Origin: Squalus acanthias
Lineage: Eukaryota
DNA length: 64,000 nucleotides
Reading direction: 5' to 3'
Assembly (NCBI GenBank): GCA_030390025.1
Contig: CM059431.1
Location: 139,254,001-139,318,000, forward strand
Notes under the pieces: generated by a model
What the model saw: the letters and a program-made list of their open reading frames with translations, nothing else
What the model was told of the DNA's origin: nothing
Databases searched by the model: none
Made by a program: the position numbers and the translations under genes
In this document: positions 9,560 to 52,896 of the stretch, piece by piece
Layout: each line of letters starts with the position of its first letter
How positions within the stretch are numbered: position 1 is the stretch's first letter

Positions 9560-11570
9560 GTCCCACCTGCTCCTTCCGTAGCCCGCATTGAAACATGAAC
9601 TTGCCCAGTCCCCATTGTGCCTACACGCTGCCCAGTCTCAATTTCACATTCGCTCGACACAGTCCCTAATGCCCTGGCCAATCCTCATTGTACCTCCTTC
9701 CTCCTCAGTCTCCATTGCTCCTTAACCCTGCCCATCCCATATTGTAACATAAGCCAAACCAATCCGCTTTGCAGCTTCACCCTGCAGTGTCAGCATTGCA
9801 CATTAAACCGATCATTCATCATTGTACCTTCACCCTGCACAGTCACTATTGTACCTTCAACTTGTGCTGTCCCCATTGTACCGTGACCCTGCTCTGTCCC
9901 CATTAAACATAATTCTGCACTTTCCCCATTGCACCTTCAACCTGCTCAGTGTGCATTGCACATTGACGCCTGCCAGCCCCCATTGCACATTTACCCCACT
10001 CAGTCTCCATTGCACATTTACCCCGCTTAGACTCCACTGCACATTCACACACTCGAAGCCTCCATTATACATTTATTCCGCTCAGTCTCCATTGCCCATT
10101 CACGCCATCCTGTCTCCCTTGCACATTCTCCTCGCCCAGTATCCATTGCACATTCACTCGCTCCCATCCTCCATTGTACATTCACCCAATCGCACCCCCA
10201 TTGCACATTTTCCTCGCCCAGTCTCCATTGCACATTCGACCCGCCCAGTCTCAATTGAATATTTTCTCTGCCGAGTCTCCATCGCCCATTCATTCCGCCC
10301 AGTCTCCATTGCAAATTCTCCTCGCCCAGTATCCGTTGTACATTCACACAATCGCACCCCCATTGCACATTCTCCTCGCCTAGTATCCATTGTACATTCA
10401 CCCAATCGCAGCCCCATTGCACATTCTCCTCGCCCAGTATCCATTGTACATTCACCCAATCGCAGCACACATTGTACATTCTCCTCGCCCAGTATCCGTT
10501 GTACATTTACCCAATCGCAGCCCACATTGCGCATTCTCCTCGCCCAGTATCCATTGTACATTCACCCAATCGCAGCACACATTGTACATTCTCCTCGCCC
10601 AATATCCATTGTACATTCACCCAATCGCAGCCCACATTGTACATTCTCCTCGCCCAGTATCTATTGTACATTCACCCAATCGCTGCCCCATTGCACATTC
10701 TCCCCGCCCAGTCTCCATTGACCATTTACCCAATCGCAGCCCCATTGCACATTCTCCCCGCCCAGTAGCCATAGTACATTCACCCAATCGCAGCCCCATT
10801 GCAAATTCTCCCCGCCCAGTATCCGCTGCACATTCTCCCCGTTCAGTCTCCATTGCACATTCTCCCTGCCAGTCTCCATTGCTCATTCTCCCCGCCCAGT
10901 CTCCATTGCACATTCACCCCGCCCAGTCTCCATTGCTCATTCACCCCGCCCAGTCTCCATTACACATTGACACTGCCCAGTCTCCATTGCCCATTCTCCC
11001 TGCCCAGTCTCCATTGCTCATTCACCCCGCCCAGTCTCCATTGCTCATTCACCCCGCCCAGTCTCCATTACACATTGACACTGCCCAGTCTCCATTGCCG
11101 ATTCTCCCTCTCCAGTCTCCATTGCACTTTCACCCCGCCCAGTCTCCATTGCCCATTCTCCCCTTCCAGTCTCCATTGCCCATTCTCCCCTTCCAGTCTC
11201 CATTGCTCATTCACCCCTTCCAGTCTCCATTGCTCATTCACCCCGCCCTGTCTCCATTGCCCATTCACCCCGCCCAGTCTCCATTGCCCATTCATCCCTT
11301 CCAGTCTCCATTGCTCATTCACCCCGCCCAGTCTCCATTGCCCATTCACCCTGCCCAGTCGCCATTGCTCATTCTCCCCGCGCAGTCTCCATTGCCCAGT
11401 CTCCATTGCACATTCTCACCTTCCAGTCTCCATTGCACATTCACCCCGCCCAGTCTCCATTGCCCATTCTCCACGCCCAGTCTCCATTGCACATTTACCC
11501 CGCCCAGTCTCCATTGCTCATTCACCCCGCCCAGTCTCCATTACACATTCGCCCTTCCCAGTCTCCTTGC
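9560..11570. repeat. 27-bp C-rich minisatellite (GCCCAGTCTCCATTGCTCATTCACCCC) with a 54-bp dimer in its middle
   Basis: 9-aa (PAQSPLLIH) and 18-aa (HSPRPVSIVHSPNRSPIA) periodicity in the ORF track. Lies in the intron of gene A. Confidence 0.92.
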
Positions 11571-11911
11571 TCTGACTCAGACTTTATCCATTTTGGTCCA
11601 GATTATGTGTTTAGCTCTGGTCGCTGTGCCAGTGCACGTTTCTTCTCTTAAATCAACGCTTCATCTTTACTGACCAGATTGACTTGTTTTTTCTTGCTCC
11701 AGGGTGGCTGGTGCTTTGTTAGTTTCATCAATACTACTGTCATTGAATTTATTATTGCCTTTCATTATTATTATAAACGCTTGTCTACATCCAGCAAAGG
11801 AATTCACTTCAATCGATGCAACAACAATCCAGAAATTTCATTCAAAATCCTTTCGAACGAATGTTGTTTGACAGTCTGGTGAAATATTTATAGTCTTTTT
11901 CTCTATTACAG

Positions 11912-12799
11912 TTAACTTTGTTGCGATTGTGGTCCTGTCCCGAGGAAATTGCGGTCTCTCGAAATGTGTGACTCTCTACCTGGTGGCCATGGCAGCGGCG
12001 GACCTCCTGGTTGTTGTCACCGATGTCATATTAAGGTGCATTGCTGATATTTATTTCCCTGTTTCATTCTTGACCATTAACCTCGTGTGCCGTCTCAACG
12101 CTGTCCTGATGTTTGCAGCCACAGAAACTTCAGTCTGGTTCACGGTGGTTTTCACCTTCGATCGATTTGTGGCCATTTGTTGTCAGAAGCTGAGAGCTAA
12201 ATATTGCACCGAAAAAACGGCGGCTATTGTTATCGCGGTGGTGAGTGTGCTGAGCTGTTTGCAAAGCATTCCCTGGTACTTTGTATCTGACCCTGAGTTT
12301 ATAATGGACAATGTACCCCGGGGTTGTGTCATGAAACCCACCTTTTTTTACTGCACCTGCGTGGGGAGCATTTGAAATACTTCACCTTGTTTTAACCCCT
12401 TTTATACCATTTATTCTGATTTTCCTGTTCAATGCTCTCACCGCCAGGCATATTTTGGCGGCCAGTAGGGTCCGCAAGGGAATCCGGGGCCGCAGCAATG
12501 GAGAGAATCACAAGGATCCAGAGATACAGAACCGAAAGAAATCCATCATTTTACTCTTCAGTATATCGGGCACTTTCATACTCTTATGGAGCACAGAAGT
12601 TGTATATTTTATCTCCCTGCATGTCACAAACGCCCAGTTCTATACAGCCAGTGTCCTTGAATCAGCCGGAATCATGCTTCAGCTGCTGAGTACCTGCACC
12701 AACGCGTGTATTTATGGCGTGACACAGAGTAAGTTCAGAGAGGAGCTGAAGAACGCAGCGAAATACTCCCTGAATCTGGTTTCTAAATTATTTCAATAA
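11912..12799 (+). CDS. GPR139-like GPCR gene A, exon 2 (TM1-TM7), with a +1 frameshift at T7 12343-12349 (pseudogene or assembly indel)
   Basis: Acceptor ctttttctctattacag|TT. Motifs NFVAIVVLSRGNCGLSKC, AMAAADLL, FTFDRFVAIC and CTNACIY. Removing one T gives ..TFFTAPAWGAFEILHLVLTPFIPF.., a 317-aa protein in total. AATAAA at 12955. Confidence 0.9.
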
Positions 12800-13439: not shown

Positions 13440-14512
13440 TATCATTTTCTGAATGGCAGGCAGTAACAAGTGGGGTACCACAGGGATCTGTCCTGGGTCC
13501 CCAGCTGTTCACAATTTACATTAATGACCTGGATCAGGGAGTCGGATGCAGCATTTCCAAATTTGCAGACGACACTAAACTAGGAGGGGGGGGTGGGCTC
13601 AGAGGAGGAGACCAGGAAGCTCCAGAGCGATTTGGACAGACTGGGTGATTGGGCGGATAAATGGCAGATGCACTATAATGTGGACAAGTGCGAAGTTATC
13701 CACCTTGGGTGCAGGAACGGGAGGGCAAATTATTATTTAAATGGCAATAAATTGGGAGAGGGGGAAGTACAGAGAGACCTGGGTGTTCTTGTACACCAGT
13801 CACTGAAGGCGAGCATGCAGGTGCAACAGGCGATCAAGAAGGCAAACGGTATGCTGGCCTTCATAGCAAAAGGGTTGGAATACAGGAACAGGGATACCTT
13901 GCTGCAGCTGTACAGGGCACTGGTGAGACCACACCTCGAGTACTGTGTACAGTTTTGGTCGCCTCATCTGAGGAAAGATGTTCTTGCCATGGAGGGGGTG
14001 CAGCGGCGATTCACCAGGCTGATACCAGGAATGGCGGGATTGACCTATGAGGAGAGACTATGTAGTTTAGGGATGTACACACTGGAGTTTAGAAGATTGA
14101 GAGGGGACCTCATAGAAGTGTATAAAATTCTGACAGGGCTAGACAGACTAGATGCAGAAGGGATGTTTCCCTTGGCGGGTGAGAACAGAACTAGAGGACA
14201 TAATTTAAGGATAAGGGCTAAACCATTTAGGACAGAAATGAGGGGGAATTTCTTCACTCAGAGGGTGGTGAACCTGTGGAACTCATTGCCACAGAGGGCA
14301 GTGTACGCCAGCTCATTAAATATATTTAAGAGGGAATTAGATATATTTCTACAGGCAAAAGGGGTTAAGGGTTACGGAGAGAAGGCGGGGACGGGATACT
14401 GAATTGGAGGATCAGCCATGATCTCATTAAATGGCGGAGCAGGCTCGAAGGGCCGGATGGCCTACTCCTGCTCCTATCTTCTATGTATCTATGTATCTAT
14501 GTATCTATGTAT
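13440..14512 (+). mobile_element. Young 5'-truncated CR1 LINE
   Basis: [17 protein letters not shown], then a 269-aa ORF to 14402. The only lesion is an extra G in G8 at 13586-13593. Tail (CTATGTAT)n. Confidence 0.95.
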
Positions 14513-14789: not shown

Positions 14790-16690
14790 GTTCTGTCCCC
14801 CTCCTCCTCTGGCACATTCTCCTGCTTTGAGGATTTCACCTGTTCCCCTCACTTTTCACCTCTCATTTAAACTCCTTGTTCTGTACCAGCCATACAAGTA
14901 TCACACGAAGTTTCTCACCGAGATACCTTCACTGCTTTCCTCCCTCAGCCTCTGCACCAAGCGACTTCTCATGCTCGGTGATTTGAAGCTCCATCTCAAC
15001 TCATCATGCTCTTTCTTCTCTGAGTTCACAGCCCTCCTATCCTCCCTTAATCGCTCCCTCCATATAAACTCCCCTACCCATTTGATGGCCACCCCTTCAC
15101 CTTGCCCTCTCACGTGCCCTCGCAACTCGCATCATGTTAATCACAGATTAGAACATTCCATATCACTTCCTTGTATCGCTCCCCACCACATCCTCCTTCC
15201 TCCTTTCAACGCCACTTCCATATATGTCAGACCCTGGGGTAAAAATCTCTCCCCCAAGTCACTTTCAACTGCACATTCAAGTTCCCACTGTAAAGCTTTT
15301 GTTTCACCATTCAACGTGACATTTCTGCAGCTACCGATCTGCCCAATCACACCCTCACCTAAAACTTTGATGCCTTTGTCATCATTAAAACCATTCCTCT
15401 CTCTCTCTTACCCTGGTCGATTCCCCTGATAAGCCCATCATATCCGCTACCTTGAGTCTAAGGGATGCAAACTTGAACGTTTATGGAGGACTGCTAGTTA
15501 GTCATCCATCTTCAGGTCTGGCTGGACCACATAAAGTACTATCAGGTCCTGCTCTCCTCCGCCAAAACTGCTCACTTTTCAAGGATATCCTGGAATGCAA
15601 AGACAACTCCCAGATTTTTTCTCCGGAAACTACAGGCTTCTCACCCATCTTCCCTGCCTCCCAAACCTTCACCTCCAACAACAAGTGCGAGGAGCTCACG
15701 AACATCGTTGTCACCAACAGTTATAAATTACTCGCAGCTGCCTCTGCCGCTTCCCTCACTTCCCGTAACCCACCGGGCCAAACTCTTTCTAAGTTTTCCC
15801 CCTGCCCCAGCCCTGAACTGACCTATTTCTCTGGCTTTACTCCTATCGCCCCTCATTCTCTCTGCGAGCTCTTCTTTTCCATGAGATCCACTTCCTGCTC
15901 CCTCGACCCTATTCCCACTAAACTGCTGACCACCCAACCTCCCTTCCTGATCCCCATGTTAGCTAATATTTTTAACGGCTCCATCTCCTCAGGTAATGAC
16001 CTCCCCTTAATATCTGCCGTTGTCACACCTCTCGTCAAAAAACCTTTGCCTCCTCTGCTCTTGCAAACTACCTCCCCATCTTCAATCCCATTTCCCCTAC
16101 AAAGTCCTTGAACGTGCAGTCTCCTCCCAAAAACATGTCCATCTTTCCTGCTTTATCATAGCTCCAATCAGGTTTCCGCCTATCCCACTGTATCATCAAA
16201 TTCACAAATTACATCCTGCGTTACTGCGACCGTGGTAAACAATTTCTCCTCATCCTTTCCCACCTGTTTGCAGCCTTCGATACGGATGACCACAGCATCC
16301 TCCTCCAACGCCATTCTTTTTTCATCCATCTTGGTGGGACTTCAATCGCCTAGTTCCATTCTTATCTATCCAATCGTTGCCAGGTAATCTCCTGCAATGG
16401 CTTCTCTTTCCGCTGCCGCACCGTTACCTGTGGAGTCTCCTGAGAATCTATCCTTGGCCCCTCCAACTTCTCATCTACATCCTGCTCCTCGGTGACATCA
16501 TCCAGCAACACAGCTTGAGATTCCACATGAGCTCTGCCTCACCACCACTTCTCTCGAAACCTCCACTGTCATTACATTGTCATACTGCATGTCCAACATG
16601 CAGTACTGCATGAGCAGAAAGTTCCTCCAACTAACTAATGGGGTCCGAAGCCATTGTCTTCGCATCCCGCCACAAACTGTGTTCTCTGGG
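14790..16690 (+). mobile_element. L2 LINE, degraded EN/RT
   Basis: LLMLGDLKLHL, SCSLDPIPTKLL, and AAFDT.DH.ILL remnants. Confidence 0.85.
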
Positions 16691-17345
16691 ACCTAGGGAG
16701 AGAGTTCTTTCGGGGATTTATATTTAAATCCTCACATCAATAATAGAACCCAGGGAGAGAGTCCTATTGGGGATTTACATGCAAATCCTCTCAGCAATAT
16801 TAACACCCAGGGAGACTGGCCTATTGGGATTTACATGTAAATCCTCTCACCAATATTATTACCCAGGGATACTGATCTATTGGGATTTACATGCAAATCC
16901 TCTCAGCAATATTAGTACTCAGGGAGAATGGCCGATTGGAATTTAAATTTAAATCCTCACATCAATATTAGGACGCAGTGAGAGAGTACTATTGTGATTT
17001 ACATTTACATCACCACACCAATAAAAGGACTCCGGGAGAGAGTCCGATAGGGGATTTGTTTTTAAATCCTTTCACCAATATTAGGACTCAGGGAGAGAGT
17101 CTATAGGGGATTTGTTTTTAAATCCTCTCACCAATATTAGGATAAAAGAAGAGATCCTGCTGGGGATATATATTTACATCCTTTCGCCGTTATTATGACA
17201 GAGGGAAAGAATCCTTTTGAGATTTACATGTAAACATTCACCAATATTAGGACCCAGTGAGAGTTTCCTACTGGGATTTAAATTTAAATCCTCACACCAA
17301 TATTAGGACCCATGATGGGTCGCCTAATTTGGGATTTGCATTTGG
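16690..17345. repeat. ~56-57-bp tandem repeat, ~12 copies, each with the palindrome GGATTTACATGTAAATCC
   Basis: Units start at about 16693, 16750, 16807, 16862, 16918 and onward. Confidence 0.88.
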
Positions 17346-18690: not shown

Positions 18691-19674
18691 GCCAGTGAAT
18701 CTGAAGTCAAATTAACGCATCAAATGCCAAATTTGGCCCAGATACTAAACATCTCCCAATAGCTAGTTAGACTCTCACCTCGGCAAAATCATCGATTGAA
18801 GTGATTCTCAGTAAAGCTCCTCACATTTCCAATCATTGTTGAAGTTTCCCGTTTCTGGCCTTCGACACTGGGGACTTGGCCGCAACAGATCTTCTCTATG
18901 AACCTAGCGAACTTTCTCCAGTCCCAGTTAGTGTAGTGATGATTCGACTTATCTCTCTCCACCTTCCTGGGATACTGCTTAATCAAATAAACGTTTAAGA
19001 AAAACGAGATTCAAATTAATTAGAAAATATGTTACAGGAAAACAATGGGACTATTTTTTGACTATAAATATATTTAATTTGAAAATATTTACAATTTTTT
19101 GAAGTATTTACTTTACTGTTAAATAGTTCTTTCGTTTGCCCCTATAGGCGCTAAATTCACACACAGGAAAAATTCAGTTGGTTGCGCCTCCCGTTAGCGC
19201 CTTAAGAGGGCGCTAATGGGGCGCAAAGCCGCTGGCGCCCGGGCGCAGCGATGTTTGCGCTGCTCGGGAACTTAACTAGACATTGTGCGGCGGCGCTAAA
19301 CTTTACCGTCGCGACCACCTGCGCGCGCAGATTGTGACGTCATTCCATGGTGCAATGCCCTTGTGGCGCCCCGGAGCGGAAATTGAGTGGCGCCCCCTGC
19401 CTTACCGCCTGGCGCATCCAACGACCGGAAGACTGGAACGCTATCAATCGCTGTGGGGCTGGGGGGTGGCGCTATTTAAAGGGGGCCTCTTCCTGTCTTT
19501 TTCTGTGGTTGACATTTTTGCACCACTCGTTCTGAGAGAGAGAGAGAGATTCGGAGAGAGAGAAAGAGAGACTTCTGCATTGTGTCAACGCTTTGTGAGG
19601 TAGTTTTGCCTACTGATCCTAACTTCGCTGGTACTTTGGTTGCTGTCCTTCATAACTTTGCTTGCAAAGAGACT

Positions 19675-20836
19675 ATGGGGGCTGCACTGAATGGGGGCGT
19701 CGTCCTGCTCCAGCTGAATCGGAGGACACAGAGACGCAGAGAGAGAGTGGCAATGATGGCCAGACGGAGGAGGGCCAACAGGCGTCTGTACAGGAGAGCT
19801 TACCCTCCCAGGGTATACGGTGAACAGCTCTCCGACATTCATATGTCTGAGGAGCTGTGTTTGCGAAGGCTGCGATTCAGCAAGGAGGTGGTCACTGAGC
19901 TCTGCCACCTGCTGCAGCCAGATCTGCAGCCTCAACTGAGGTCCAGGACGTCTCTGTCGGTGGCAGTGAAGGTCACAGTGGCTCTCAACTTCTATGCTAC
20001 TGGCTCATTTCAAGCTGCTGCTGGGGACCTCGCCAATATCTCCCAGTTCGCGGTGCATTGATGCATCCGGCAGGTCACAAATTCCCTCTTTAAAAGGAGA
20101 CGAGAGTTCATCTCTTTCCCCATGACCCTAGACACATCAGCGTGACCGCGCTCTGGGCTTTGCGAGGATAGCGGGCTTCCCCATGGTGCAGGGCGCCATT
20201 GACTGCATGTATGTGGCTTTGCGTGCTCCACATGAGAATGCCGAGGATTTCCGGAACAGAAAGGGGTTCCATTCCTTGAATGTTCAGTTGGTCTGTGACC
20301 ACAGACCGCTGATACTCGCTGTCAATGCCCACTATCCTGGCAGCTGCCACGATGCTTTCATCCTGCGCCAGACTACTGTGGCAGAACTTTTCGAGGCACC
20401 GCATCAGCCAGTTGGTTGGCTTCTCGGGGACAAGGGGTATCCATTGAGCACCTGGCTGATGACACCGCTCCGTACGCCCAACACCCCTGCTGAGCTGCGG
20501 TACAATGAGAGCCATCAAGCTACCAGGAACATCATTGAGCGCACAATCGGCGTGCTGAAGCAACGGTTCCGCTGTCTCGACCATTCTGGAGGAGCCCTGC
20601 AGTACTCGCCTGAGCGAGTATCCAACTTCGTAGTTGTGTGCTGCATGTTGCATAAAATGGCAATCGTCAGGACACAGCCAATGCCACCAGGTCTTGGAGC
20701 ACCACCAGAGAAGGAGGAGGAAGAGGAGGAAGAGGACGAGGAGGATGATCATCAGCAGCACCAAGGCGGGAGGGCGGCCCACAATGGTGAAACTGCAAGG
20801 GCCGTCCGTCAACGGCTGATAGCAAGCCGCTTCTAG
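19675..20836 (+). pseudogene. Harbinger (HARBI1-like) DDE transposase, disabled
   Basis: [66 protein letters not shown] at 20059-20061 and a frameshift near 20130. Confidence 0.93.
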
Positions 20837-21148
20837 GGCCCCTGCTGTGGAAATGGCTTCTGCCATTGCTAACAACATCAATGAACCCAGCACGCAACCC
20901 CTAAGCCGGCCAAGGCACCAATGATTCCAAACACCAAACATGTATATTTTGAATACAAAAACTTATTTATTTTACAAACTCTGTGTGTGTCATTTCCTCA
21001 TGACAAACTCATAGTAATAAACACAAAAAAACAGTCATTAACATAACTGGTTCTCACAACCTGGAGATAATGTCCAAAACACTAGACAAAAGTTGGACCA
21101 TGAACCTCGGCCTTTAATAAAAAAATGACCAGCATTTTGTCACACCTC

Positions 21149-23071
21149 CTACTTTTTGCCCTTCGAGGGTGATCTCCTTCCCTTGCGCACTTCCCCCCTT
21201 CTAACCCTACTGCTCCTCCGTAATGGGACCTCAGTGGCTGCAGCAAGGCTGGTGGAAGGCTGCTGATTGTCAGACCCTGACACTGCAGATGCCCCTGAAG
21301 GACGGCCTCGACCAGTTCTGGGCCTGGAGGGCCCGGCTGCAGACTGCACCAACTCTGCATGGGCGGCAGCAGTCAGTCCTACAGGCGGTGGCAAGTGCAG
21401 TGGAGAAGTGACAGTGTTGGCAGCAGGAATGCTGTAATCGTGAGAGAGGACAGCAACTCCCTGCTCGACCGACACACTGGCACTCCCACGGGGCAGCACT
21501 TCAGCATCCGGAGCAATCTGCTGGAGCACAGATTGCTGGCCTGCTGCGGCGCGGTGAGAGCCCCGGGGACATGTGAACGAACCATCGAGGTTGGCAGCAG
21601 TCAGTGCTCGCGTGGCCTCAATCTGAGTCTGCATGAGAGCAGTCAGAGATGGGATCACGGCAGTCAGTGACTGAATTGCAGCACTAAGCTTTAGTGTGGC
21701 ATCCGCCTGTGCTACAGCGAAGTGCTCCACACTCCTTGCCAGTGACTCAATGCATTCGGGCACCCTTCCCACTGCACCCATGAGCTCAGTGTGCATGCCC
21801 ACCGCCTGTGTGTTCATTTCTGCGATCAGCCGCTCCTCCTCTGCGTCCATTGCAGTAGGAGTCGCTGGCATACTCTCCCTCTGGGGAGAAGGCCCCCGTT
21901 CTTCCCTACCCCCATGGCGTTGCTGCAGCCCGCTGGGTCCTGGAGCTTCACCCTCATCAGACCCTTCCCCCCTGCTCCCCTCCAGGGAAGGCGTGTTCCC
22001 AGTGTGGGCATGGGCTTCCTCGGGAGAGGGTGGCACTGATGCTCCGGCTTCCTCTTCCTCCTCGGCTGCAGCTTCACTCCCACTGGCAGCTTCAGGGCCC
22101 GTCTCCTCAGCTGGTGAATCACCATCTGAAAGCAGGGAGGTACAAGAGTGGCTTTAGCGTGAGGACAGGGTGGCAGTAAGGGAGGAATAAATGCAGCGAG
22201 TTAGCAAGTTGGATTGAAAGTGTCAAAGGCTGGTGTTGTGAGGGACCAGTGGAAGGACAGAGGACAAAAAGGTGATGACCTTACCATTGCTGTCCAGAAC
22301 GGGGTCGGCGTCTCCAGTGGCGACGGGACCGATCACCCGGCTTGCCACAATCCTGTGGACGCGCTCCTCAAGATCGCTGAGGGGTTGCAGCTGAGGCCGC
22401 CCTCCACCTGTCCGTTGCTGCTGTCTCCTATTATGCGCCAGCTTGGCCTGCAAGAAAAAGGACAGCATCTGAGTAAATATACAGCCATGGTCTTGCCTGA
22501 TGTGCCTCCCATAGGTGAATAGCCCTTACTGTATGCAGCCATGGTCTTGCCTGATGTGCCTCCCATAGGTTAATAGCGCTTACTGTATGCAAAGTGTGGA
22601 ATGCGTGTGTGTGTTTCATGAAAGGGCCATAGGTGTTGGATGAGTGTTGTGCATTGGGGTTTTAAGACCCTCTGGCCATAGAGTGAGGTTGAGATGGAGG
22701 GATGGAGAGGTATTGAGAAAAAGCCACTCACCCTGACGACCTGAGTGAGGTCGTTGAACTTTTTGCGGCATTGAACATGGGTCCTGGGCACCATGCTCCT
22801 GGAGGAAATAACAACAGAAAACGCTGGAAAAACTCAGCAGGCCAGGCAGGATCCGTGGAGAGAGAAAGAGAGTTAACGTTTCAGGTCGAAGACCTTTCAT
22901 CCTGGAGGAGATGCTCTGAGCCACCTCCCTCCACACTCTTCTGTACTCGCGTGGCAAAGGCCTCCTGCCACTCTCAGGGAAGAGTATAGATCTTCTGCGC
23001 TCCACCGCGCCAACCTGAGCATCCAAGGCCCGCTCGGTGAAGCGCTGAGCTCGTTCTCTCACCCTCTCCAT
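21149..23071 (-). pseudogene. Harbinger Myb/SANT-like DNA-binding gene, 3 exons (23071-22732, 22447-22285, 22125-21149), interrupted by a 103-bp insertion
   Basis: RAQRFTERAL..W.EVA..RT..QCRKKFNDL|AKLAHNRRQQQRTGGG. GT-AG introns in phases 0 and 1. Excising the insertion gives 458 aa with no stop. Confidence 0.88.
22807..22899 (-). mobile_element. Penelope-like pLTR fragment with a 10-bp target-site duplication
   Basis: TCCTGGAGGA at 22797-22806 and 22900-22909. Near-identical to 47384-47478. Confidence 0.9.
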
Positions 23072-23434
23072 CCTTGGCAGCAAAATGGATTCACAGGTCT
23101 CTCCAGGCCGAGATTCAAGGCTGCAATGAGCAGGGTGTGGCTGGGGAGCAAGTTGCCCCCCCCCCCCTTTAAGAACTGGCCGGCGCCAGTGTGTCTGTGT
23201 TCCCTCGCTAACTGGCAGCACCTGCGCTGCGCTCGCGTGCTGAGTTAGCGCCTCACTGCTCGGCCTTTGCGCCTTAAGACAGGTGTGCAGCGCCTGATTT
23301 AGCGCTCCACTCACCTCCCGGGGCGTTAAAAGTGAAGTTTCCAGTCAGTGGCGATAATTAGCGCCAGGCGCTAATTTTTGCGTCCAGACGATATTTGCGC
23401 CCCAAACGGGGCGCAACCTAATTTCTCCTCCTTA

Positions 23435-24624: not shown

Positions 24625-25190
24625 GGTTAGGAACAGCATGGGTAAGACTGAGTGTAAAGTTCACTCAACACTGTACTATCCCAGGGCAGGTACGGCATGG
24701 GTTATTTACAGAGTAAAGCTCTATCTATAACGTGCAATCAAACCCTCCAAGGGCAGATACAACAAGGGTTTGTTCCAGAGTAAATTTCCATCTGCACTCT
24801 CCCCTCAAACACTCCCATGGCAGGTACAGGTCAGGTTAGCTACAGCGTAATGTTCCCTCTACACTTTCCAATCAAATACTCCCAGGGCAGGTAAAGAAAG
24901 GGTTAGATGCAGAGTAAAGCTCCCTCTACACTGGACCTTCAAACACTCCCAGGGCAGGTACAGGACAGGTTAGCAACAGCGTAATGCTCCCTCTACACCT
25001 TCCCATCAAATACTCCCAGGGCAGGTAAAGAAAGGGTGAGATACAGAGTAAAGCTCCCTCTACACTGATCTTTCAAACACTCCCAAGGCAGGTACAGCAT
25101 GGATTAGCTACAGATTAAAGCTTCCTTTCCACTGTCCCGCAAAACACAATCAGGGCAGGTGCGGCAGGGGTTAAATATAGTGTAAATCTC
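24625..25190. repeat. 67-bp tandem repeat, ~8 copies
   Basis: CTCCCAGGGCAGGTAC..GGTTAGATACAGAGTAAAGCTCCCTCTACAC recurs at ~67-bp spacing. Confidence 0.9.
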
Positions 25191-26198: not shown

Positions 26199-29100
26199 AA
26201 AACTGAGACAAAACAATGCGATAATTTTAAATATAATTGATTCTATCCGTTTTGGATGCAAATTTACATTTCCTGACTCTGCTGCTAACAATGTGTTTCC
26301 CTGTATCTGTGATATTGATTCATTTACTGGGGCATCTGTCTTCATTCCAAATGTGTTTCCTTGTATCTGTGATATTGATTCATTTATTGGGGGACATCTG
26401 TCTTCATTGCAAATGTGTTTCCCCGTATCTGTGATATTGATTCCTTTATTGGGTCATCTGTCTTCATTCCAAATGTGTTTCCCTGTATCTGTGATATTGA
26501 TTCATTTATTGGGGCATCTGTCTTCATTCCAAATGTGTTTCCATGTATCTGTGATAGTGATTCATTTATTGGGGGGCATCTGTCTTCATTCCAAATGCGT
26601 TTCCCTATATCTGTGACATTGATTCCTTTATTGGGACATTTGTCTTCATTCCAAAAGTGTTTCCCTGTATCTGTGATTTTTATTCATTTATTGGGGGTCA
26701 CCTATCTTCATTCCAAATCTATTTCCCTGCATCTGTGATATTGATTCATTTATTCGGGTATCTGTCTTCATTCCAAATGTTTTTCCCCTGTATCTCAGAT
26801 AATGATTCATTTATTGGGTGATCTGTTTTAATTCCAAATGTATTTCCCTGTATCTGTGATATTCATTCGTTTATTGAGGGCATCTGTCTTCAATCCAAAT
26901 GTATTTCCCTGTATCTGTGATATTGATTCGTTTATTGAGGGCATCTGTCTTCAATCCAAATGTATAACCCGGGTTCTGTGATATTGATTCGTTTATTGGG
27001 GCATCTGTCTTCATTCCAAATGTCTTTCCATCTGTTTGTGATTTTTATTTATTTATTGGGAGTCATCTGTCTTCAATCCAAATGTATTTCCCTGTATCTG
27101 TGATATTGATTCGTTTATTGAGGGCATCTGTCTTCAATCCAAATGTATTTCCCTGTATCTGTGATATTGCTTCTTTTATTCGGGGGCATCTGTCTTAATT
27201 CCAAATGAGATCTCCTGCATCTGTGATATTGATTCATTTATTGGGTCATCTGTCTTAATTCCAAAGTCTTTCCTTGTTTCTCGGATATTGATTCATTTAT
27301 TGAGCGGAATCTGTCCTCATTCCAAATGGTTTTCCCTCTATCTCTGATAATGTTTCATTTATTGGGGGGCATCTGTCTTCATTCCAAATGTTTTTTCCCT
27401 CTGTCTGTTATTCTTACTCATTTATTGGCGGTCATCTGTCTTCATTCCAAATGTTTTTCCCTGTATCTGCGATATTGATTCATTTATTGGGGGTCATCTA
27501 TCATCATTCCAATTGTGTTTCCCTCTATCTGTGACGTTGATTCATTTATTGGGGGTCATCTGTGTTCATTCCAAATGTGTTTCCCTGATTCTGTGATATT
27601 GATTCGTTTATTGGGGCTTCTGTCTTCATTCCAAAGCTATTTCGCTGTATCTGTGATATTGATTCATTTATATGGGCATCGTTCTTCATTAAAAATGTGT
27701 TTCCCTGTATCTGTGATTTTTATTCATTTATTGGCGGTCATGTGTCTTCATTCCAAATGTGTTTCCCTCTTTCTTTGATATTGATTCATTTATTGGGTCT
27801 CATCTGTCTTAATTAAGATGGAGAGTGAAGTAGTTGACTCAGAGACTAGGGTCCTGAATTTAAATAAAGGAAACTACGATGGTATGAGGCGCGAATTGGC
27901 TAGGATGGATTGGGGAACGTTACCTAAAGGGTTGACGGTGGATAGGCAATGGCAAACATTTAAAAATCGCATGGATAAACGACAGAATTTGTTCATCCCT
28001 GTTTGGCATAACAATAAAACAGAAAAGGTGACACAACCGTGGCGAACAAGGGAAATTAGGGATAGCATAAGATCCAAGGAGAGAACATATAAATTGGCCA
28101 GAAAAAGCAGCAAACCTGAGGATTGGGGTCAGTTTAGGATTCAGCAAAGGAGGACAAAGGGATTAATTAAGAGGGGGAAAATAGACTATAAGAGTAAGTA
28201 TGCAGGGACATAAAAACTGACTGTAAAAGCTGCTATAGATATGTGAAGCGAAAAAGATTGGTGAAGTCAAGCGTAGGTCCCTTGCTGTCAGAATCAGGGG
28301 AATTTATAATGGGGAACAAAGAAATGGCAGACCAATTAAATACATACTTTGGTTCTGTCTTCACAAAGGAGGACACAAATAACCTCCCAGAGATATCGGG
28401 GAACATAGCGTCTACTGAGAGAGTAGAACTGAATGAAATCATTATTTGTAGGGAAATGGCGTTAGGGAAATTGACGGGATTGAAGGCCGATTAATCCCCA
28501 GGGCCTGATAATCTACATCCTAGGGTACTTAAGGAAGTGGCCCTTGAAATAGTAGATTCATTGCTGGGCATCTTCCAAAATTCTATAGACTCTGGAACAG
28601 TTCCCATGGATTGTAGGTTAGCTAATGTAACCCCACTATTTAAAAAAGGTGGGAAAGAGAAAATGGGGAATTATAGACCGGTAAGCCTGAAATCGGTAGT
28701 GGGGAGAATGCTAGAGTCCATTAGAAAAGATGTAATAGCAGAGCACTTGGAAAACATTGACAGGATCGGACAAACTCTATATGGATTTACAAAAGGTAAA
28801 TCATGCTTGACTAATCTACTGGAATTTTTTGAGGATGTAACTGGTAGAATAGATAAGGGACAAGCAGTGGATGTGGTGTAGTTGGACTTTCAGAAGGCTT
28901 TCGATAAGGTCCCGCATAAGAGATTAGCGTGCAAAGGTAAAGCACATGGGATTGGGGGTAAGGTACTGACTTGGATAGAGATCTGATTGGCAGACAGGAA
29001 GCAAAGTGTTGGAATAAACGGGTCTTTTTCCGAGTGGAAGGCAGTGACTAGTGGGGTACCGCAGGGATCGGTGCTAGGTACCCAGTTATTCACAATATAT

Positions 29101-29283
29101 ATTAATGATCTAGACGTGGGAACTAGATGTAATATCTCCAAGTTTGCAGACGACACACAGCTGGGTGGTGTGTGTGTTGTGAGGAGGATGCAGAGAAACT
29201 CCAGTATGATTGGGACAAGTTGGGTGATTGGGTAGATGCATGGCAGATGCAGTATAATGTGGATAAATGCGAGGTTATCCACG

Positions 29284-29492
29284 ATGCGGAGATGCCGGTG
29301 TTAGACTGGGGTAGACAAAAGTGAGAAGTTGCACAGCACCAGGTTATAGTCCAACAGTTTTATTTGAAATCACAAGCTTTCGGAGCGTTGCTCCTTCGTC
29401 AGGTGAAGTAAAGGAATTCCTTTACTTCACCTGACGAAGGAGCAACGCTCCGAAAGCTTGTGATTTCAAATAAAACTGTTGGACTATAACCT
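29284..29492. mobile_element. Penelope-like pLTR insertion forming a perfect 154-bp palindrome, 13-bp TSD
   Basis: TSD GAGGTTATCCACG at 29271-29283 and 29493-29505. Palindrome 29340-29493 centred on GGAA|TTCC. Confidence 0.85.
29427..29463 (+). ncRNA. Minimal type I hammerhead ribozyme (mirror copy at 29370-29406, minus strand)
   Basis: tcac CTGACGA a GGAGC-aac-GCTCC GAAA GC TT gtga: stem I tcac/gtga, 5-bp stem II, palindromic AGCT stem III. Confidence 0.8.
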
Positions 29493-31544
29493 GAGGTTAT
29501 CCACGTTAGTGGCAAAAACAGTAAGGCAGATTATTATCTGAACGGCAATAGATTGGGCAAAGGGAAAGTGCAACGAGACCTGGGAGTCCTTGTGCACCAG
29601 TCGTTGAATGTAAACATGCAGCTGCAGCAGGCGGTTAAGAAGGCAAACGGTATGTTGGCCTTCATAGCGAGATGATTCTAGTACAGGAGTAAGGATATCT
29701 TGCTGCAGTTGTACAGGCCCTTGGTAAGACCACACTTTGAGTATTGTGTGAAGTTCTGGCCGCTTTATCTGAGGAAGGATGTTCTTGCCATGGAGGGGTT
29801 GCAGCGAAGATTCACCAGACTGATACCTGGGATGGCAGAAATGACGTATGAAGAGAGATTGGGACTATTGGGTTTGTATTCGCTAAAGTTTAAAAGAATG
29901 AGTGGGGATCTCATTGAAACTTATAAAATTCTAACAGGACTAGACAGACTAGATGCAGGAAGGATGTTTCCGATGGCGGGGGAGTCCAGAACCAGTGGTC
30001 ACACTCTAAGGATAAGAGGTAAAGCCATTTAGGACAGAGATGAGGAGGAATTTCATCATCCAGAGAGTGGTGAACCTTTGGAATTCTCTACCACAGAAGG
30101 CAGTTGAGGCCAATTCATTAAATATATTCAAGAATGAGTTCGATATATTTCTAAAGGCTAAAGGGATCAAGGGATATGGGGAGAAAGCAGGGACATGGTA
30201 CTGAATTTGGATGATCAGCCATGATCTCATTAAATGGCGGAGCAGGTTCGAGGGGCCGAATGGCCTACTCCTGCTCCTATCTTCTATGTTTCTATGTAAT
30301 TCCAAATGTGTTTCCCTGTATCTTTGATATTGATTCATTTATTGGGGGGCATCGGTCTTCATTGCAAATGTATTTCCACGTATCTGTGATATTGATAAAT
30401 TTATTAGGGCATCTGCCTTCATTCCAAATGTGTTTCCTTGTATCTGTGAATTTTATACATTTATTGGAGGTAATCTGTCTTCAGTCGAAACGTGTTTCCC
30501 TATATCTGTGATACTGATTCATTTATTGCGGCATCTGTCTTCAATCCAAATGCCTTTCCCTGTATCTGTAACACTGATTCATTTATTGCGGCATCTTGTT
30601 TTATTCCAAATGTGTTTCCCTGTATCTTTGATATTGTTTCATTTATTGGGGCATCTCTCTTAATTCCAAATTTGTTTCCCTGTATCTGTGATATTGATTC
30701 ATTTATTGGGGCATCCGTTTTCCTCCAAATATGTTTCCCTGTATCTGTGATATTGATTCATGTATTGGGGGGCATCTGACTTCATTCCAAGTGTGTTTCC
30801 CTGTATCTATGATATTGATTCATTCATTGGGGCATCTGACTTCATTCCAAGTGTGTTTCCCTGTTTTCATTCCAAATGCATTTCCATCTAACTCTGATAT
30901 TGATTCATTTATTGGGGGACATCCGTTTTTTTCCAAATGTGTTTCCCTGTATCTGAGATATTTATTCATTTATTGTGGTCTTTGTCTTCATGCCAAATCA
31001 GTTTCCCTGTATTTGTGATAGTGATTCATTTTTTCGGCATCATCTGTTTTCATTCCAAATGTATTTCCCTGTATCTGTGATATTGATTCATTTATTGGTT
31101 GGGATCTGTTTTCATTCAAATGTGTTTCCCTGTATCTGTGATATTGATTCATTTATTGGGGGGCATCTGTCTTCATTCCAAATGATTTCCCTCTATCTGT
31201 GATATTGATTCATTTATTCGGGCATCTGTCTTCATTCCTTGTGTGTTTTGTAAGTATGTATATCTCAATATTTTACTTTTAAATTACACAAAATTACATT
31301 CATATATAGCACAGACACACACAAATACAATGAAACTAACACAGAGATAGACCCAAATGTATTCATGATTAGTACGCAAATATACCCAAGTTCATTTAGA
31401 ATTATCACAGATGCAATTATATCTATATTATGTAATATATCTCATATTAGCAAAGTACACTTTAAACTGGCACAGATAAAAAGCATCACACTCATGACAT
31501 AAACACTGACTTTATATATAAACATCACAACCGCACAGTAGGCT

Positions 31545-32759: not shown

Positions 32760-35000
32760 TTTATTTGAACTCACTTTCGCGGGCTTTGTTCCTCAGGGAC
32801 TGGTGTCGGGAGCTGTAGCAGAGGGGCAGCACAGTGAGTATTTGAACTCACTTTCGCGGGCATTTTTTCAAAGGCTTACCAATCTCGCAATCCGGCGGCG
32901 GCGTTCCAGAGGCACGTCACGATTCAAAAAGTGACGCGCGCAAGAGGAAGCAGCTGATTGGGTGAGTACGAACAATACTGTATAGTTTGACAGTTAAGGT
33001 TAAAAGTTTATAAAGTTTAGAAGGTCTTAATTTTTCTAGTTTATAGTTTCTAAGGTCTCTGTTGTGTAGCGGGGAGCGCTAGTAAACAAGAGCCCTTGAC
33101 TATATCATTTAATTGTAGATTAATTAGTGGCATTGATCTGATTTAATTTAATTTGTATTAAAAAAAGGGTAAGTCCTGGCAGCACAGCTCGGCCGCGTGG
33201 TATGCTCCTCCTGCACTATGTGGGAAATCAGGGACACTTTCTGTGTCCCTGACGACCATGTGTACAGAAAGTGTATCCAGCTGCAGCTACTGGCAGAACG
33301 CATTGCGGCGCTGGAGCTCCGAATAGATACATACTGGAGCATTCGCGATTCTGAGGACGTCGTGGATAGCACTTTTAGGGAGTTGGTCACACCGCAGGTA
33401 AAGGCTGCACAGCCATGAAGGGAATGGGTGACCGCCAGGCAGAGTAGTAGGCGTAGGCAGGTAGTGCAGGGGTCCCCTGTGGCCATCACCCTCTCAAACA
33501 GATATACCGCATTGCATATTGTTGGGGGAGATGGCTTATCGGTGGAATGCAGCAGCAACCAACTTCCTGGCACCATGGATGGTTCTGTTGCACAGGACGG
33601 GAGGAAAAAGAGCGGGAGAGCTAAGTAATTGGGGATTCTATTGTAAGGGGAACAGATAGGCGTTTCTGCGGACGCAAACGAGTCTCTAGGATGGTATGTT
33701 GCCTCATTGGTGCAAGGGTCAAGGATGTCTCGGAGCTGCTGCAGGGCATTCTGGAGGAATTTTTTGAGTATGTAACTGGTAGAATAGATAAGGGAGAACC
33801 AGCGGATGTGCTATATTTGGACTTTCAGAAAGCTTTCGATAAGGTCCCACATAAGAGATTAGCGTGCAAAGTTAAAGTACATGGGATTGGGGGTAAAGTA
33901 CTGACTTGGATAGAGAACCGGTTGGCAGACAGAAAGCACAGAGTAAACCGTTCATTTTCCGAGTGGCAGGCCGTGACTAGTGTGGCACCGCAGGGATCGG
34001 TGCTAGGACCCCAGTTAGTCACAATATATATTAATGATCTAGACGAGGGAACTAGATGTAATATCTCCAAGTTTGCAGATGACACAAAGCTCGGTAGGCT
34101 TGGGTGCTGTGAGGAAGATGCAGAGAAACTCCAGTATGATTTGTACAGATTGGGTGATTGAGCACATGCATGGCAGATGCAGTATAATGTGGATAAATGT
34201 GAGGTTATGCACTTTGGTGGCAAAAACAGGAAGGCAGATTATTATCTGAACGGCAATAGATTGGGAAAAGGGGAAGTGAAACGAGACCTGAATGTCCTTG
34301 TGCACCAGTCGCTGAAGCAAAGTATGCAGGTGCAGCAGGCGGTTAAGAAGGCAAATGGCATGTTGGACTTCATAGCGAGAGGATTCGAGTACAGGAGCAA
34401 GGATGTCTTGCAGCAGTAGTACAGGGCCTTGGTGAGACCACACCTTGAGTATTGTGTGCAGTTTTGATCGCCTTATCTGAAGAAGGATGTTCTTGCCATG
34501 GAAGGAGTGCAGCGAAGATTCACCAGACTGATACCTGAGATGGCAGGAATAACGTATGAGGAGAGATTCGTTCGATTAGGCTTATATTCGCTAGAGTTCA
34601 GAAGAATGAGAGGGGATCTCATTGAAACGTATAAAATTCTAACATGACTAGACAGACTAGATGCAGGAAGGCTGTTCCCGATGGCGAGGGAGTCCAGAAC
34701 CAGGTGTCACAGTCTAAGGATAAGGGGTAAGCCATTTAGGACTGAGATGAGGAGGAATGTCTTCACCCATAGAGAGTTGAACCTGTGGAATTCTCTACAA
34801 CAGAAGGCAGGTGAAGACAATTCATTAAATATATTGAAGAAGGAGTTAGATATATTTCGTAAGGCTAAAGGGATCAAGGGATATGGGGAGAAAGCAGGGA
34901 CAGGGTACTGAATTTGAATGATCAGCCATGATCTCATTAAATGGCGGAGCATGCTCGAGGTGCCGAGTGGCCTACTCCTGCTCCTATCTTCTATGTTATT
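32760..35000 (+). mobile_element. CR1 with 5' UTR and ORF1 fused to the RT by a large internal deletion
   Basis: ORF1 CSSCTMW..C, leucine zipper and GDSIVRG (SGNH-esterase motif) run directly into RT EFFE.VT.RIDKGEP at ~33751-33758. CR1 3' end at ~34995. Confidence 0.9.
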
Positions 35001-36609: not shown

Positions 36610-36900
36610 GCCACACCCTTTGCAACATTTTATCTTTCCTGCCTCTTACCTCAGCACAGTATATTCCTACAATTCTTCCCTCCCCTCCCACGCACCACCA
36701 ACCCCCCCCCCCCCCCCTCTCTGCACCAGCTTAATATCTGTTACATCTCCAGCTTTATCCATATCTGATGAAGGGTCCCAGACCTGAAAAGTTTACTCTG
36801 TTTCACTCTCCACGGATGCTGCCTGACCTGCTGAGTGTTTCCAGCATTTTTTGTTGTTATTTCAGATTTCCAGCGTCCGCAGTATTTTGCTATTGAATTA
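36610..36900 (+). mobile_element. Penelope-like pLTR with a degenerate hammerhead core
   Basis: CTGATGAAGGGTCCCAGACCTGAAAAGTTTACTCTG..GGATGCTGCC..; homologous to 47861-48056. Confidence 0.8.
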
Positions 36901-38335: not shown

Positions 38336-38343
38336 CTTCTCCC

Positions 38344-38380
38344 AATTCTGATGAAAGATCATCGAGCTGAAACGTTAATT
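38344..38380 (+). ncRNA. Minimal hammerhead ribozyme in a Penelope pLTR (pLTR extends to ~38480)
   Basis: aatt CTGATGA a AGATC-atc-GAGCT GAAA CG TT aatt; one stem II mismatch. Confidence 0.65.
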
Positions 38381-39044
38381 CTGTTTCTCTCTCCACAGAA
38401 GCTGCCTGTCCTGCTGAGCATTTCCACCATTTTCTGTTCTTATTTCAGATTTCCAGCATCCGCAGTGTTTGCCTTTTTTCCCGTAAATAATTTTTTGCCT
38501 TTCGATTGAAGACACGAAAAGCCGAGATAATTATTGTTTTCAACACGGCGGCTGAAAATGGCCGGGATGACACGTGACAGGAGTCCTTTCTGAATTATTT
38601 AAAGGTAGATTCTAAAAATTGGCGAGTGCTAATTTAAAATCACGGTTACAGTTTGTTTCAGTATAAAAGGAGTGGATTGAAAATAACAATAAAACGCCAG
38701 GCAGCGCCCGCGGTGAGACAGATTCGAACTCCTGATGAAGTTGGTGCTGCGAAGTAACCGCTGACCTAAAGCTGACCCCGATCAAAGGGGCAGAAAACAC
38801 TAAATATAAAGGATGAGCTCACAAATATCAGGCGCAGTGCGGGTCTGGTCAACGTCAACCTCCTCCTTTCTCATTCAATACAGGAAGAAGAGACTCAACG
38901 CGATTCAGACGGCAGAAAGATTCATAAATAGAACAAAAAAAGACGCAAATACAAGTAACACCCACTTTCCAAACATTTTCACTGTAAAATTATTTCACTT
39001 TATTTAAAAGGTTACTGCTATTAACTTGAAAATGAGCACCGAAG

Positions 39045-47260: not shown

Positions 47261-47383
47261 CATTGTGTTAGAGAATGATTTTTTCTGAGGACAGTGGAAT
47301 ATGGCAACTGATATTAGAAAAAGCGACCCCCCTTTGCGATTGGTTGGGCCGGCCCACATGATCCCAGGGACGGTTATGAACCG

Positions 47384-48056
47384 AAATAACAACAGAAAAC
47401 GCTGGAAAAACTCAGCAGGCCAGGCAGCATCCGTGGAGAGAGAAAGAGAGTTAACGTTTCAGGTCGATGACCTTTCATCAGAACTGGGAAGAGCCGGAAA
47501 TCAAATAGATTTAAGGCCAGGGTAAAGCTGGGAAAAGGGGGAAGTCCACGGAAGCGCAGCGTAAGCTCGAGGAACAGCACCTCATCTTTCGTTTAGGCAC
47601 GCTACAGCCCTCTGGACTCAATATCGAGTTCAACAATTTTAGATCATAACCTCAGCTCCAATCACATTTATATTTTATTTTTATTTGTCCCCCCCCCACC
47701 TTTTTTTTTCCTCCTAGAAGCTGGCAGCTGTCCTTCATTCTGCCAGTGGATTTCACACTTCATTCAGCCTTAATCTGTCACATTAACACCACCTCTAGCC
47801 TTGCATATCTCTTAATGTCTCTTAATGTCTCTTCATCTCCCCCTTTGTTCCTTTATCCCCTCCCCCTTTTCCCAGCTTTACCCTGGCCTTAAATCTATTT
47901 GATTTCCGGCTCTTCCCAGTTCTGATGAAAGGTCATCGACCTGAAACGTTAACTCTCTTTCTCTCTCCACGGATGCTGCCTGGCCTGCTGAGTTTTTCCA
48001 GCGTTTTCTGTTGTTATTTCGGATTTCCAGCATCCGCAGTATTTTGCTATCGTATT
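47384..48056 (+). mobile_element. 5'-truncated Penelope-like element with inverted pLTR, GIY-YIG C-terminus and 14-bp TSD
   Basis: TSD ACGGTTATGAACCG at 47370-47383 and 48057-48070. 162-bp inverted arms at 47381-47542 and 47861-48022. STEAQRKLEEQHLIFRLGTLQPSGLNIEFNNFRS* at 47545-47649. Confidence 0.92.
47918..47954 (+). ncRNA. Minimal type I hammerhead ribozyme (mirror copy at 47449-47485, minus strand)
   Basis: agtt CTGATGA a AGGTC-atc-GACCT GAAA CG TT aact. Confidence 0.8.
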
Positions 48057-48679
48057 ACGGTTATGAACCGCATGTGCTCCTGCGATATGTGGGACTTTAC
48101 TCAGGCGTAGGCCTGCAGACCCAGGAGCGCGAGTCTTCGAAGGTACGGAGGCACCAGGAAGTTGCGAACTTTACTGGCGGTTTGGACCTCATTAAATCCA
48201 ATGGGATCTGCGGGCCACTCACAGCGTTTATTTTTTAGCGACTTTGTAGTGAATTAGAATGATTGTAAGTGAGATTTCATAGTGAAATTTTAGTTACAGG
48301 ACAAGTCTGCTTTGGATGATATAGAGGCCGAAGACATAGGCTGTTAGATTCTGAATTAAAATATAATGTAAACCACTGAAACTGTTGAATTGTAGTTGAC
48401 CCCAACACCAGCAGTTTAATTGTACTTTTCGTATTAACAATCCTATGACAAACATATAAAGGTTACAGGAATATCCGGGACCTGAATGTATGCGAGACAC
48501 TGTTCTTAATCCACTAAGATAAGGTGGACCATGATGAGCTGTTTCACCTTGTCCACAACAGGAGAACCAGAGGACACGGCCTGAGATTGAAGAAGTAAAT
48601 TCAAAACGAATCTCTGGAAACATTATTTCAGTGAGCGACTGTCTATCTATGGAACAGGCTTCCTTCCTAATCTTCATAT

Positions 48680-51998: not shown

Positions 51999-52896
51999 TC
52001 ATTTTCGAAAAACAATAAACTTCCATGGAGATTTAATCAGCTTCTTCAGCTCTGCCCTGAATTTAGTTTGAGTAGCTGCATAAATACACGTGTTTGAACA
52101 GGAACTCAAATACATGAGCATATATCCGGTTGCTGTGGCGATGTATGCGGGAACTGAATAATCGCCTCGGTAAAACGCGGTTTTTGACAGTCTGGTAGTT
52201 AAATAACTAACAACAGATGTCAGCCACAACAGTATAAAACTGCCCGATACACTGAAAAGTAAAATGATGGATTTCCTTTGGTTCTCCATCTCTGGATCGC
52301 TCTGATTCTCACTGCTGTGACCCCGAAATCCCCTGCGGGCTCTACTGGCCACTAAAATACGTCTGACTTTCAAACAATTAAACAGTAATATCAAAGCAAA
52401 TGCAAGCCAAGCAATGAAAATGCTTTCTAACCAGTAGTACGCGACACTTGCAGCCGATGATAAAAACTCCACTCTGGCGCGGCAACCCCAGGGAACATTG
52501 TTAATTATTCGCTCAGGTTCATATGCAAACCAAAAAGGGAGGCTCTGTAAACAGATCAGGAGAGAGACCGTTGTTATAACCGCGGCCGCAGTTCTCACAG
52601 TGCAATACTTGGTTTTAAACTTCTCACAACATATAGCTACAAATCGGTCAAATGTGAATGAGACTGTAAACCACACCGACAAATAAAGGTGAAACATTGC
52701 ACATATATAATGATCTTACAAACGGCAGTTAACGACAGGAATGAATGTGGAAAGTGATAACGTATAATGCGGTTCACTAGTATATTGATGATCATGACCA
52801 GTAGATCTGCTGTTGCCATGGCCACCATGTAGACAGAGATACATTTGGAAAGGCCGCAATTTCCTCTGGAGAGAATCACGATTGCCAGTAGGTTCG
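51999..52896 (-). CDS. GPR139-like GPCR gene B, exon 2, with a -1 frameshift near 52685-52689 (pseudogene or assembly indel)
   Basis: Acceptor ctctttctcacag|CG. Motifs ANLLAIVILSRGNCGLSKC, AMATADLL, FTFDRFVAIC, VPWGC and SNTCIY. One added base gives 322 aa in total. Confidence 0.9.

Follow-up and report, generated by a model that had tools for sequence, protein, structure and literature searches.

A 209-bp insert in the genome of Squalus acanthias, built around an exact palindrome, is very probably a micro-insertion, dead on arrival, that stems from a Penelope-like element (PLE) of high copy number. It consists of a 133-nt tailed 3' end of the element and a 77-nt inverted copy that lacks the tail. 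The insert lies in a window of 64,000 nucleotides (contig CM059431.1 of assembly GCA_030390025.1, positions 139,254,001 to 139,318,000 of the forward strand), to which all coordinates given here refer. It is the shortest form of the arrangement of inverted copy, direct copy, and tail, and it contains no spacer because both copies stop at the same base. The arrangement itself is already known for PLEs, and the stump is one among many PLE remnants. The preliminary description of this DNA overstated its novelty: the layout is found in PMC3846280 and PMC8557442, and hammerhead pairs on opposite strands are found in PMC4209133.

Structure and setting of the insert

The palindrome occupies positions 29340–29493 (154 nt). 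It equals its own reverse complement, with arms that are identical at 77 of 77 sites and no spacer between them, precisely as first described; the bases flanking it (C and A) do not pair. No other palindrome with arms of at least 11 nt and a spacer of at most 10 nt occurs in the 64-kb window, nor does a second copy of this one. Read on the − strand, the insert is the 133-nt 3' end of the element (29416 to 29284) with the inverted copy, devoid of the last 56 nt, placed ahead of it. The 5' end of this main, tailed copy (29284–29416, − strand) is the palindrome centre, a self-complementary 14-mer around AATT at 29410–29423 placed at the margin (29405–29413) beyond which most family copies in related sequencing runs no longer match. 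The inverted tail-less copy (77 nt) extends over 29417–29493 on the + strand. A one-sided extension of 56 nt (29284–29339, − strand) separates the left target site duplication (TSD) from the arm, again in agreement with the preliminary description; it comprises the 'tail' and about 8–23 nt past the commoner family ends at 29317, 29324, and 29332.

The two copies of the TSD, at 29271–29283 and 29493–29505, are identical at 13 of 13 positions, as had been stated, but their length is better given as 12 or 13 bp, because G29493 is common to the arm and the TSD and G29283 may double as the element's last base (a family end at 29283 is found in run X10). The right TSD includes 29494–29500, a 7-nt match to the arm end that is discussed below. 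Both junctions, the centre, and the target are all contained within 235 bp, and the insert holds no ORF region.

The host of the insert is a 5'-truncated, decayed LINE with stops and frameshifts (27815–30296, + strand), with a possible 5-bp duplication at its ends (27810–27814 and 30297–30301). Its matches to RVT_1 in Pfam (E 7.8e-06 and 0.0047) are both under the curated cut-off; Pfam gives RVT_1 only, and we take the LINE to be of the CR1 type from its protein and 3' end. It interrupts a satellite of 60–61 bp, the left part of which lies at 26290–27814 and the right part at 30299–31238. Removal of the insert together with one TSD copy restores the reverse-transcriptase reading frame of the LINE. 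The empty site is present in paralogous CR1 copies within the window (34081–34348 and 13602–13839), and it runs on at 29282 in all four related runs that were mapped. The nesting of the insert in a CR1 within a satellite, proposed from the first reading of the sequence, is supported by the restored frame, the empty-site paralogues, and the satellite on both sides; the order of events is satellite, then LINE, then palindromic insert. A PLE insertion is expected to show a TSD with an empty site and an adjacent head-to-head, inverted, 5'-truncated copy, and all of these were found.

Other features of the window include further satellites at 54169–61165, 9775–11570, 16689–17312, and 24679–25186, with periods of 26 (269 copies), 27, 56, and 67. 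Among the ORFs at 19513–23344 are a putative Harbinger-type nuclease (20132–20836, + strand) and a putative Myb/SANT-like partner (− strand). From their translations, the frames at 11872–12799 (+), split over two frames, and 51999–52715 (−) are taken to be seven-transmembrane-receptor-like.

The arms differ at 0 of 77 sites (95 % upper bound 3.8 %), an identity that requires no more than a young insertion in an older LINE; arm-to-arm repair or polishing of the assembly may have contributed. Relative to run X1, the tail is more divergent than the arm (7 of 56 vs 1 of 70 sites, Fisher p 0.02). Repair of the arms was considered as the cause of this difference and was dropped: only 4 of the 56 tail positions differ from run X10, and subfamily variation is enough to explain it.

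Copies in related runs

The left half of the locus (29225–29416) was mapped on four of 24 runs (X1, X2, X10, and X21), which probably derive from relatives of the source, since no listed run contains more than 0.53 of the sampled words. In the mapped runs the arm sequence occurs in very high numbers, with 6947, 23254, and 5173 contig records and 16 reads from 6 % of X21. The records, thousands of contigs with unlike flanks, reveal a dispersed, 5'-truncated multi-copy family, as PLEs form. Among the 3' loose ends listed are 29283, 29317, 29324, 29332, and 29347, and the inner end used here, 29340, is not among them. Measured from the distal end, three of these ends (29317, 29324, and 29332) are at 34, 41, and 49 nt, as against the 56-nt extension of the present insert. 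The 5' loose ends listed include 29386 (15 contigs) and 29405–29413 (230 contigs); the latter edges are located just upstream of stem I of the hammerhead and not at its cut site. At least four other inversion junctions are present in the related runs, three of them joints between opposite strands and one a loose end that continues as the sense arm. The breakpoints of those listed all differ from one another and from the centre at 29410–29423. Read depth at 29414–29416 is near zero in X1 and X2 and 21222 in X10, and the last 7 nt of each arm at the palindrome centre may or may not be templated. No record spanning 29225–29416 was present in the four runs, which are probable relatives searched with the left half only. 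A 19-nt pattern of the insert family had 0 loci in viral contigs and 0 in metagenome contigs, and these scans linked no ORF to the family.

The hammerhead motifs

Each copy carries a minimal type I hammerhead motif, the main copy at 29370–29406 (− strand, predicted cut after 29374) and the inverted copy at 29427–29463 (+ strand). In the latter, stem I is formed by 29427–29430 and 29460–29463, the core by 29431–29437, and stem II by 29439–29443 and 29447–29451, with an extra A at 29438 ahead of stem II; GAAA (29452–29455) and AGCU (29455–29458) follow, and the cut is predicted after 29459. A complete minimal hammerhead in each arm, which had been claimed before, was thus located part by part and fits the minimal-hammerhead consensus. 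A scan written from that published consensus (PMC4209133 supplement) identified four sites in the window, namely the two motifs of the insert and a second pair at 47481/47922; 200 block-shuffled windows yielded no site. The motif has the consensus core, the extra base, G10.1–C11.1, a palindromic helix III, an NUH site, and helix I. It also agrees with the consensus in its U-rich lead-in and shows the GCUU variant listed for a turtle (PMC4209133), while its stem I is identical to that of the lamprey PLE entry, which has a similar U-rich lead-in (PMC4209133 supplement). The association with PLEs made in the preliminary description is supported by the fit to this consensus, and a minimal hammerhead in the terminal repeat, another mark of PLE insertions, is present.

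The hammerhead search suggested earlier succeeded as a consensus scan but not with Rfam, whose hammerhead families gave no match up to E 10 in 28800–30000 or in one arm alone. The folding of a single arm is no better than that of shuffles (z −0.40, −1.18, and +0.25), with stems I and II still in the predicted structure. For two isolated arms, a dimer of −27.9 kcal/mol is predicted that contains the AGCU helix and has its stems II swapped. Across five motifs in the window, seven of nine pairs change on both sides and 91 % of cells pair, a covariation score reached in one of 500 shuffles; the comparison is mostly one of the first family with the second (one and four motifs), and the structure was drawn from the same sequences. 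Rfam matches to microRNAs, snoRNAs, and group II introns were all under their gathering scores. A known microRNA precursor was rejected, as the best match (53.8 bits vs a gathering score of 83) reflects hairpin shape only, and the snoRNA and group II intron matches were set aside as hairpin shape or chance. Elsewhere in the window, 32760–32860 contains a loose hammerhead-like match on the − strand and a short direct repeat, and fails the strict consensus scan.

The preliminary description spoke of two mirror-image hammerheads. They are present, one per strand, but a single transcript includes no more than one of them: the left arm has the motif on the − strand only, and on either strand the perfect complement precedes the motif. 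This arrangement rules out a dimer in cis, and RNA read through the locus would be expected to lack activity. Predicted folding agrees with the earlier suggestion that the hairpin sequesters the ribozyme, a 210-nt + transcript reaching −150.8 kcal/mol as a 75-bp stem compared with −83.7 kcal/mol when the ribozyme stems are forced, an advantage for the hairpin of about 67 kcal/mol. On this folding model, the complement, made first in a read-through transcript, should zip the ribozyme into the 75-bp stem, and no cleavage should occur.

In published work, single minimal motifs did not cleave and dimers cleaved at a low level (PMC4209133), and a lizard PLE ribozyme was cleaved solely with the element's protein (PMC11167929). 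Judged from its sequence, the hammerhead of the insert is the ordinary motif of the PLE terminal repeat (pLTR) carried along. Because 43 nt of the insert lie 5' of the predicted cut, the RNA that served as its template was uncleaved; the purified lizard PLE protein likewise uses uncleaved RNA (PMC11167929).

A second family in the window

An insertion of a second PLE-type family at 47370–48070 (+ strand) has the same layout and serves as an internal control. It is made up of a 14-bp TSD, a 162-nt perfect inverted copy, a 318-nt spacer in which an ORF ends, a hammerhead, and a 34-nt tail, and its inverted junction shows a 3-nt microhomology. Its hammerhead has an ACGU helix III, with a pyrimidine tract and CAG ahead and a possible 3' splice site at helix I; a 3' splice site at helix I has been described for a fly element (PMC4209133). 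The TSDs of the two insertions (29271–29283 and 47370–47383) both contain GGTTAT, in opposite orientation relative to the element, which is probably due to chance.

PLEs encode a telomerase-like reverse transcriptase together with a GIY-YIG endonuclease. The endonuclease-like end of the ORF (47545–47649) has 26 homologues at E up to 0.001, of which 12 were scanned. One of the 12, P0023 (E 4.1e-04), continues upstream into a match to GIY-YIG with CxxC that is under the Pfam cut-off (E 0.008), in a gene model that looks chimeric; the remaining scanned homologues are unannotated or chimeric-looking gene models. No Pfam family was found for the 34-aa ORF end or for P0001, and a word-indexed search gave one unannotated match among seven candidates. 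These sequence matches moderately support the assignment of the second family to the PLEs. From its ORF end, a PLE origin of the first, palindromic family may be argued by analogy.

The window includes four further copies of this second family, two of them with the tail. The copy at 22805–22901 (− strand) is 97 bp long, has a TSD of 9–10 bp and no tail, and is 98 % identical to 47370–48070. It starts inside the hammerhead core and sits in an open frame beside a transposase-like ORF. The inverted arm of 47370–48070 ends within about 2 nt of the end of this tail-less direct copy, which points to a start site of reverse transcription and not to a stop of copying. The older copies, at 36730–36900 (+), 38340–38470 (+), and 61182–61644 (−), have 72–89 % identity and hammerheads that are partly decayed; two of them have the tail and one lacks it.

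Comparison with known systems

An inverted 5'-truncated copy combined with a tail of 30–40 bp belongs to the general scheme of PLEs (PMC8557442). Direct pLTRs, an adjacent inverted pLTR, TSDs of 8–10 bp, a 31-bp tail, and abundant palindromes at head-to-head junctions have been described in detail (PMC3846280). The insert shares with Pen2a_Av and its relatives (PMC3846280; scheme in PMC8557442) a direct copy with a one-sided, tail-like extension, the tail-less head-to-head inverted copy, a TSD of about 10 bp, a palindrome at the inverted junction, and insertion into another retroelement. It differs from them in having no ORF or internal part, such that all but the extension is one spacerless palindrome, and in the length of that extension, 56 nt as against the published 30–40 bp (PMC8557442).

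The hammerheads of metazoan PLE pLTRs (PMC4209133) have in common with the present motif the core, the extra base between 9 and 10.1, G10.1–C11.1, a palindromic 4-nt helix III, a 4-bp helix I, and a U-rich lead-in. Mention is made there of hammerhead pairs on opposite strands 100–700 bp apart, whereas the motifs here are separated by about 20 bp, each is masked along its whole length by its complement, and stem II has 5 bp. The searched portion of the PMC4209133 supplement holds no shark entry. Poseidon of Anolis carolinensis (PAc) resembles the insert in having at least two 3' ends that bound the tail, a hammerhead upstream, and an insert made from uncleaved RNA; a feature of PAc is an ORF that starts inside the hammerhead (PMC11167929). 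Inverted copies or palindromes are not discussed in the main text or the searchable supplements of that paper.

Non-LTR retrozymes (bioRxiv 10.64898/2026.07.22.740005; see also PMC7229834) are likewise PLE-related, being short units that do not code for protein and that carry a type I hammerhead. They are head-to-tail repeats with their ribozymes on one strand, in contrast to the head-to-head insert with one ribozyme per strand. Classification of the insert as a retrozyme was rejected: a retrozyme requires two or more head-to-tail units, each with a hammerhead, and here the copies are inverted and the unit is not directly repeated. One chondrichthyan genome is among those of bioRxiv 10.64898/2026.07.22.740005 and might contain the insert's family. 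A MITE or fold-back DNA transposon was also considered and rejected: the 56-nt extension lies between the left TSD and the arm, and the junctions vary among copies.

The 5' inversions of L1 arise by twin priming, in which both target ends prime cDNA on the RNA and an inverted part comes to lie between the TSDs. There, an upstream part of the RNA is inverted, whereas here the inverted part repeats the 3' part.

Formation of the palindrome

Priming from both target strands, with the two cDNAs joined at a self-complementary end, has roughly an even chance of being how the insert was formed. The element's endonuclease would nick both target strands 12–13 nt apart. With uncleaved element RNA as the template, both 3' ends would then start reverse transcription, the first at the end of the tail (29284) and the second further in (29340), and both cDNAs would reach the 5' edge of the template, immediately upstream of stem I of the hammerhead. 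The cDNAs would anneal through self-complementary 3' ends (AATT up to GGAATTCC), after which fill-in would complete the insert. Intermolecular pairing at the centre is favourable from 4 nt (−1.9, −4.5, and −8.1 kcal/mol for 4, 6, and 8 nt). A purified PLE protein, predicted to be a dimer, cuts and extends both strands, and its reverse transcription begins at two internal sites by which the tail is delimited (PMC11167929). According to PMC8557442, the way in which PLEs give rise to inverted copies and tails has yet to be resolved.

The preliminary description took a match between the target and the arm end to suggest fold-back primed by microhomology. The match is real: the target strand that meets the inverted arm shares its final 7 nt with the sense strand of the element, one base before the junction. 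When random 13-mers from the window were compared with a 32-nt neighbourhood, a match this good was obtained in 1.2 % (one orientation) or 2.3 % (either orientation) of 20000 draws, before counting register; it is a single case, noticed after the fact. Priming by base pairing did not stand, since the joined target strand is identical and not complementary to the element RNA and the true pairing at the junction is 1 nt, and the 7-nt match therefore cannot act as a primer match. It can explain the position of the arm end, not the formation of the centre. That this likeness set the unusual inner start, by tethering RNA or cDNA to the target, is about as likely as not; a preference of the endonuclease may provide an alternative route from the match to the arm end. 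The 5-nt target likeness of the second element is expected by chance in 23 % of cases and was not counted as a second case.

Taken together, the observations are probably best explained by a PLE 3'-end micro-insertion, head to head, between target duplications, whichever way its two halves were joined. Fold-back of the same element, which would yield the same final sequence as twin priming, is the less likely of the two routes, with perhaps one chance in a few. A single cDNA would reach the template's 5' end, fold on its self-complementary end, and be copied back until the other target end pairs with the cDNA via the 7-nt match, or until it reaches a motif that element and target share and that the endonuclease nicks in each. 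This would account for the identity of the arms and for the exact register of the match. Palindromes at PLE junctions have been read as the result of self-priming, not twin priming (PMC3846280), and the three opposite-strand joints in the related runs always have one side at 29405–29413 while the other side varies. A hairpin at the centre is favourable only from 10 nt, however, and would be unstable with any shorter self-complementary end, and the inverted arm of the second family ends where its tail-less direct copy ends, as expected for a start site of reverse transcription. The palindrome might also have been copied whole from a palindromic master, a PLE derivative of a non-autonomous, MITE-like kind. 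Copies of the family are very numerous in the related runs, PLE ends can be mobilised in trans (PMC3846280), and non-autonomous PLE derivatives with hammerheads have been reported (bioRxiv 10.64898/2026.07.22.740005), but the four other inversion junctions listed all differ, the centre is nearly absent from X1 and X2, and the 64-kb window lacks a second copy, which makes such a master improbable.

A selected RNA device, whether a ribozyme switch that works in both directions or a hairpin from which small RNAs would arise to silence the family, has very little probability. A perfect stem of 75 bp is predicted, PLE copies yield small RNAs in a rotifer (PMC3846280), and the identity of the arms (77 of 77) stands out against 35 private changes in the right part of the host CR1, an upper bound from 613 sites where two paralogues agree. 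Yet the insert is located in a decayed LINE inside a satellite, a young insertion gives the same identity within the upper bound given above, and the arms of the second family are also perfect. The microRNA matches indicate hairpin shape alone, and the single ribozyme per strand would be buried by the energy difference calculated above. Least probable of all, and barely to be credited, is an artefact of fold-back in the assembly or library. No related run spans the locus, even the best one holding 0.53 of the sampled words, and polishing with reads of other copies could raise the identity of the arms; but the mirror stops at the TSD, where collinear CR1 resumes in frame, and a fold-back chimera would mirror the flank too. 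Only one side, moreover, bears the tail, and the second family repeats this layout.

Implications

Two cautions follow: palindromes of this kind are scored as hairpins resembling microRNAs, and a pair of hammerheads situated on opposite strands does not amount to a ribozyme dimer. The value of the insert is that of a clean mechanistic fossil, since insertions of the shortest form preserve the two junctions together with the centre and the target.

Extended from this insert to the group, twin priming suggests a model that we put forward tentatively and that is rather less likely to be right than wrong: spacerless PLE palindromes would be the footprint of symmetric, twin-primed reverse transcription by a dimeric PLE protein on one short RNA. 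The 5' end of this RNA would lie just upstream of the hammerhead, and the two cDNAs would be joined via their self-complementary end. A short likeness between target and element would set the start of the second cDNA, or the endonuclease would cut the same motif in both. The literature covered, which included few subscription journals, contained no statement of such a model for PLEs and nothing to the point on shark PLE palindromes or hammerheads or on twin priming in PLEs. If the model is true, the combination of an inverted pLTR and a tail, long unexplained, would be accounted for in one step, and every such insertion would be self-silencing, with its ribozyme buried in the long hairpin that it forms.
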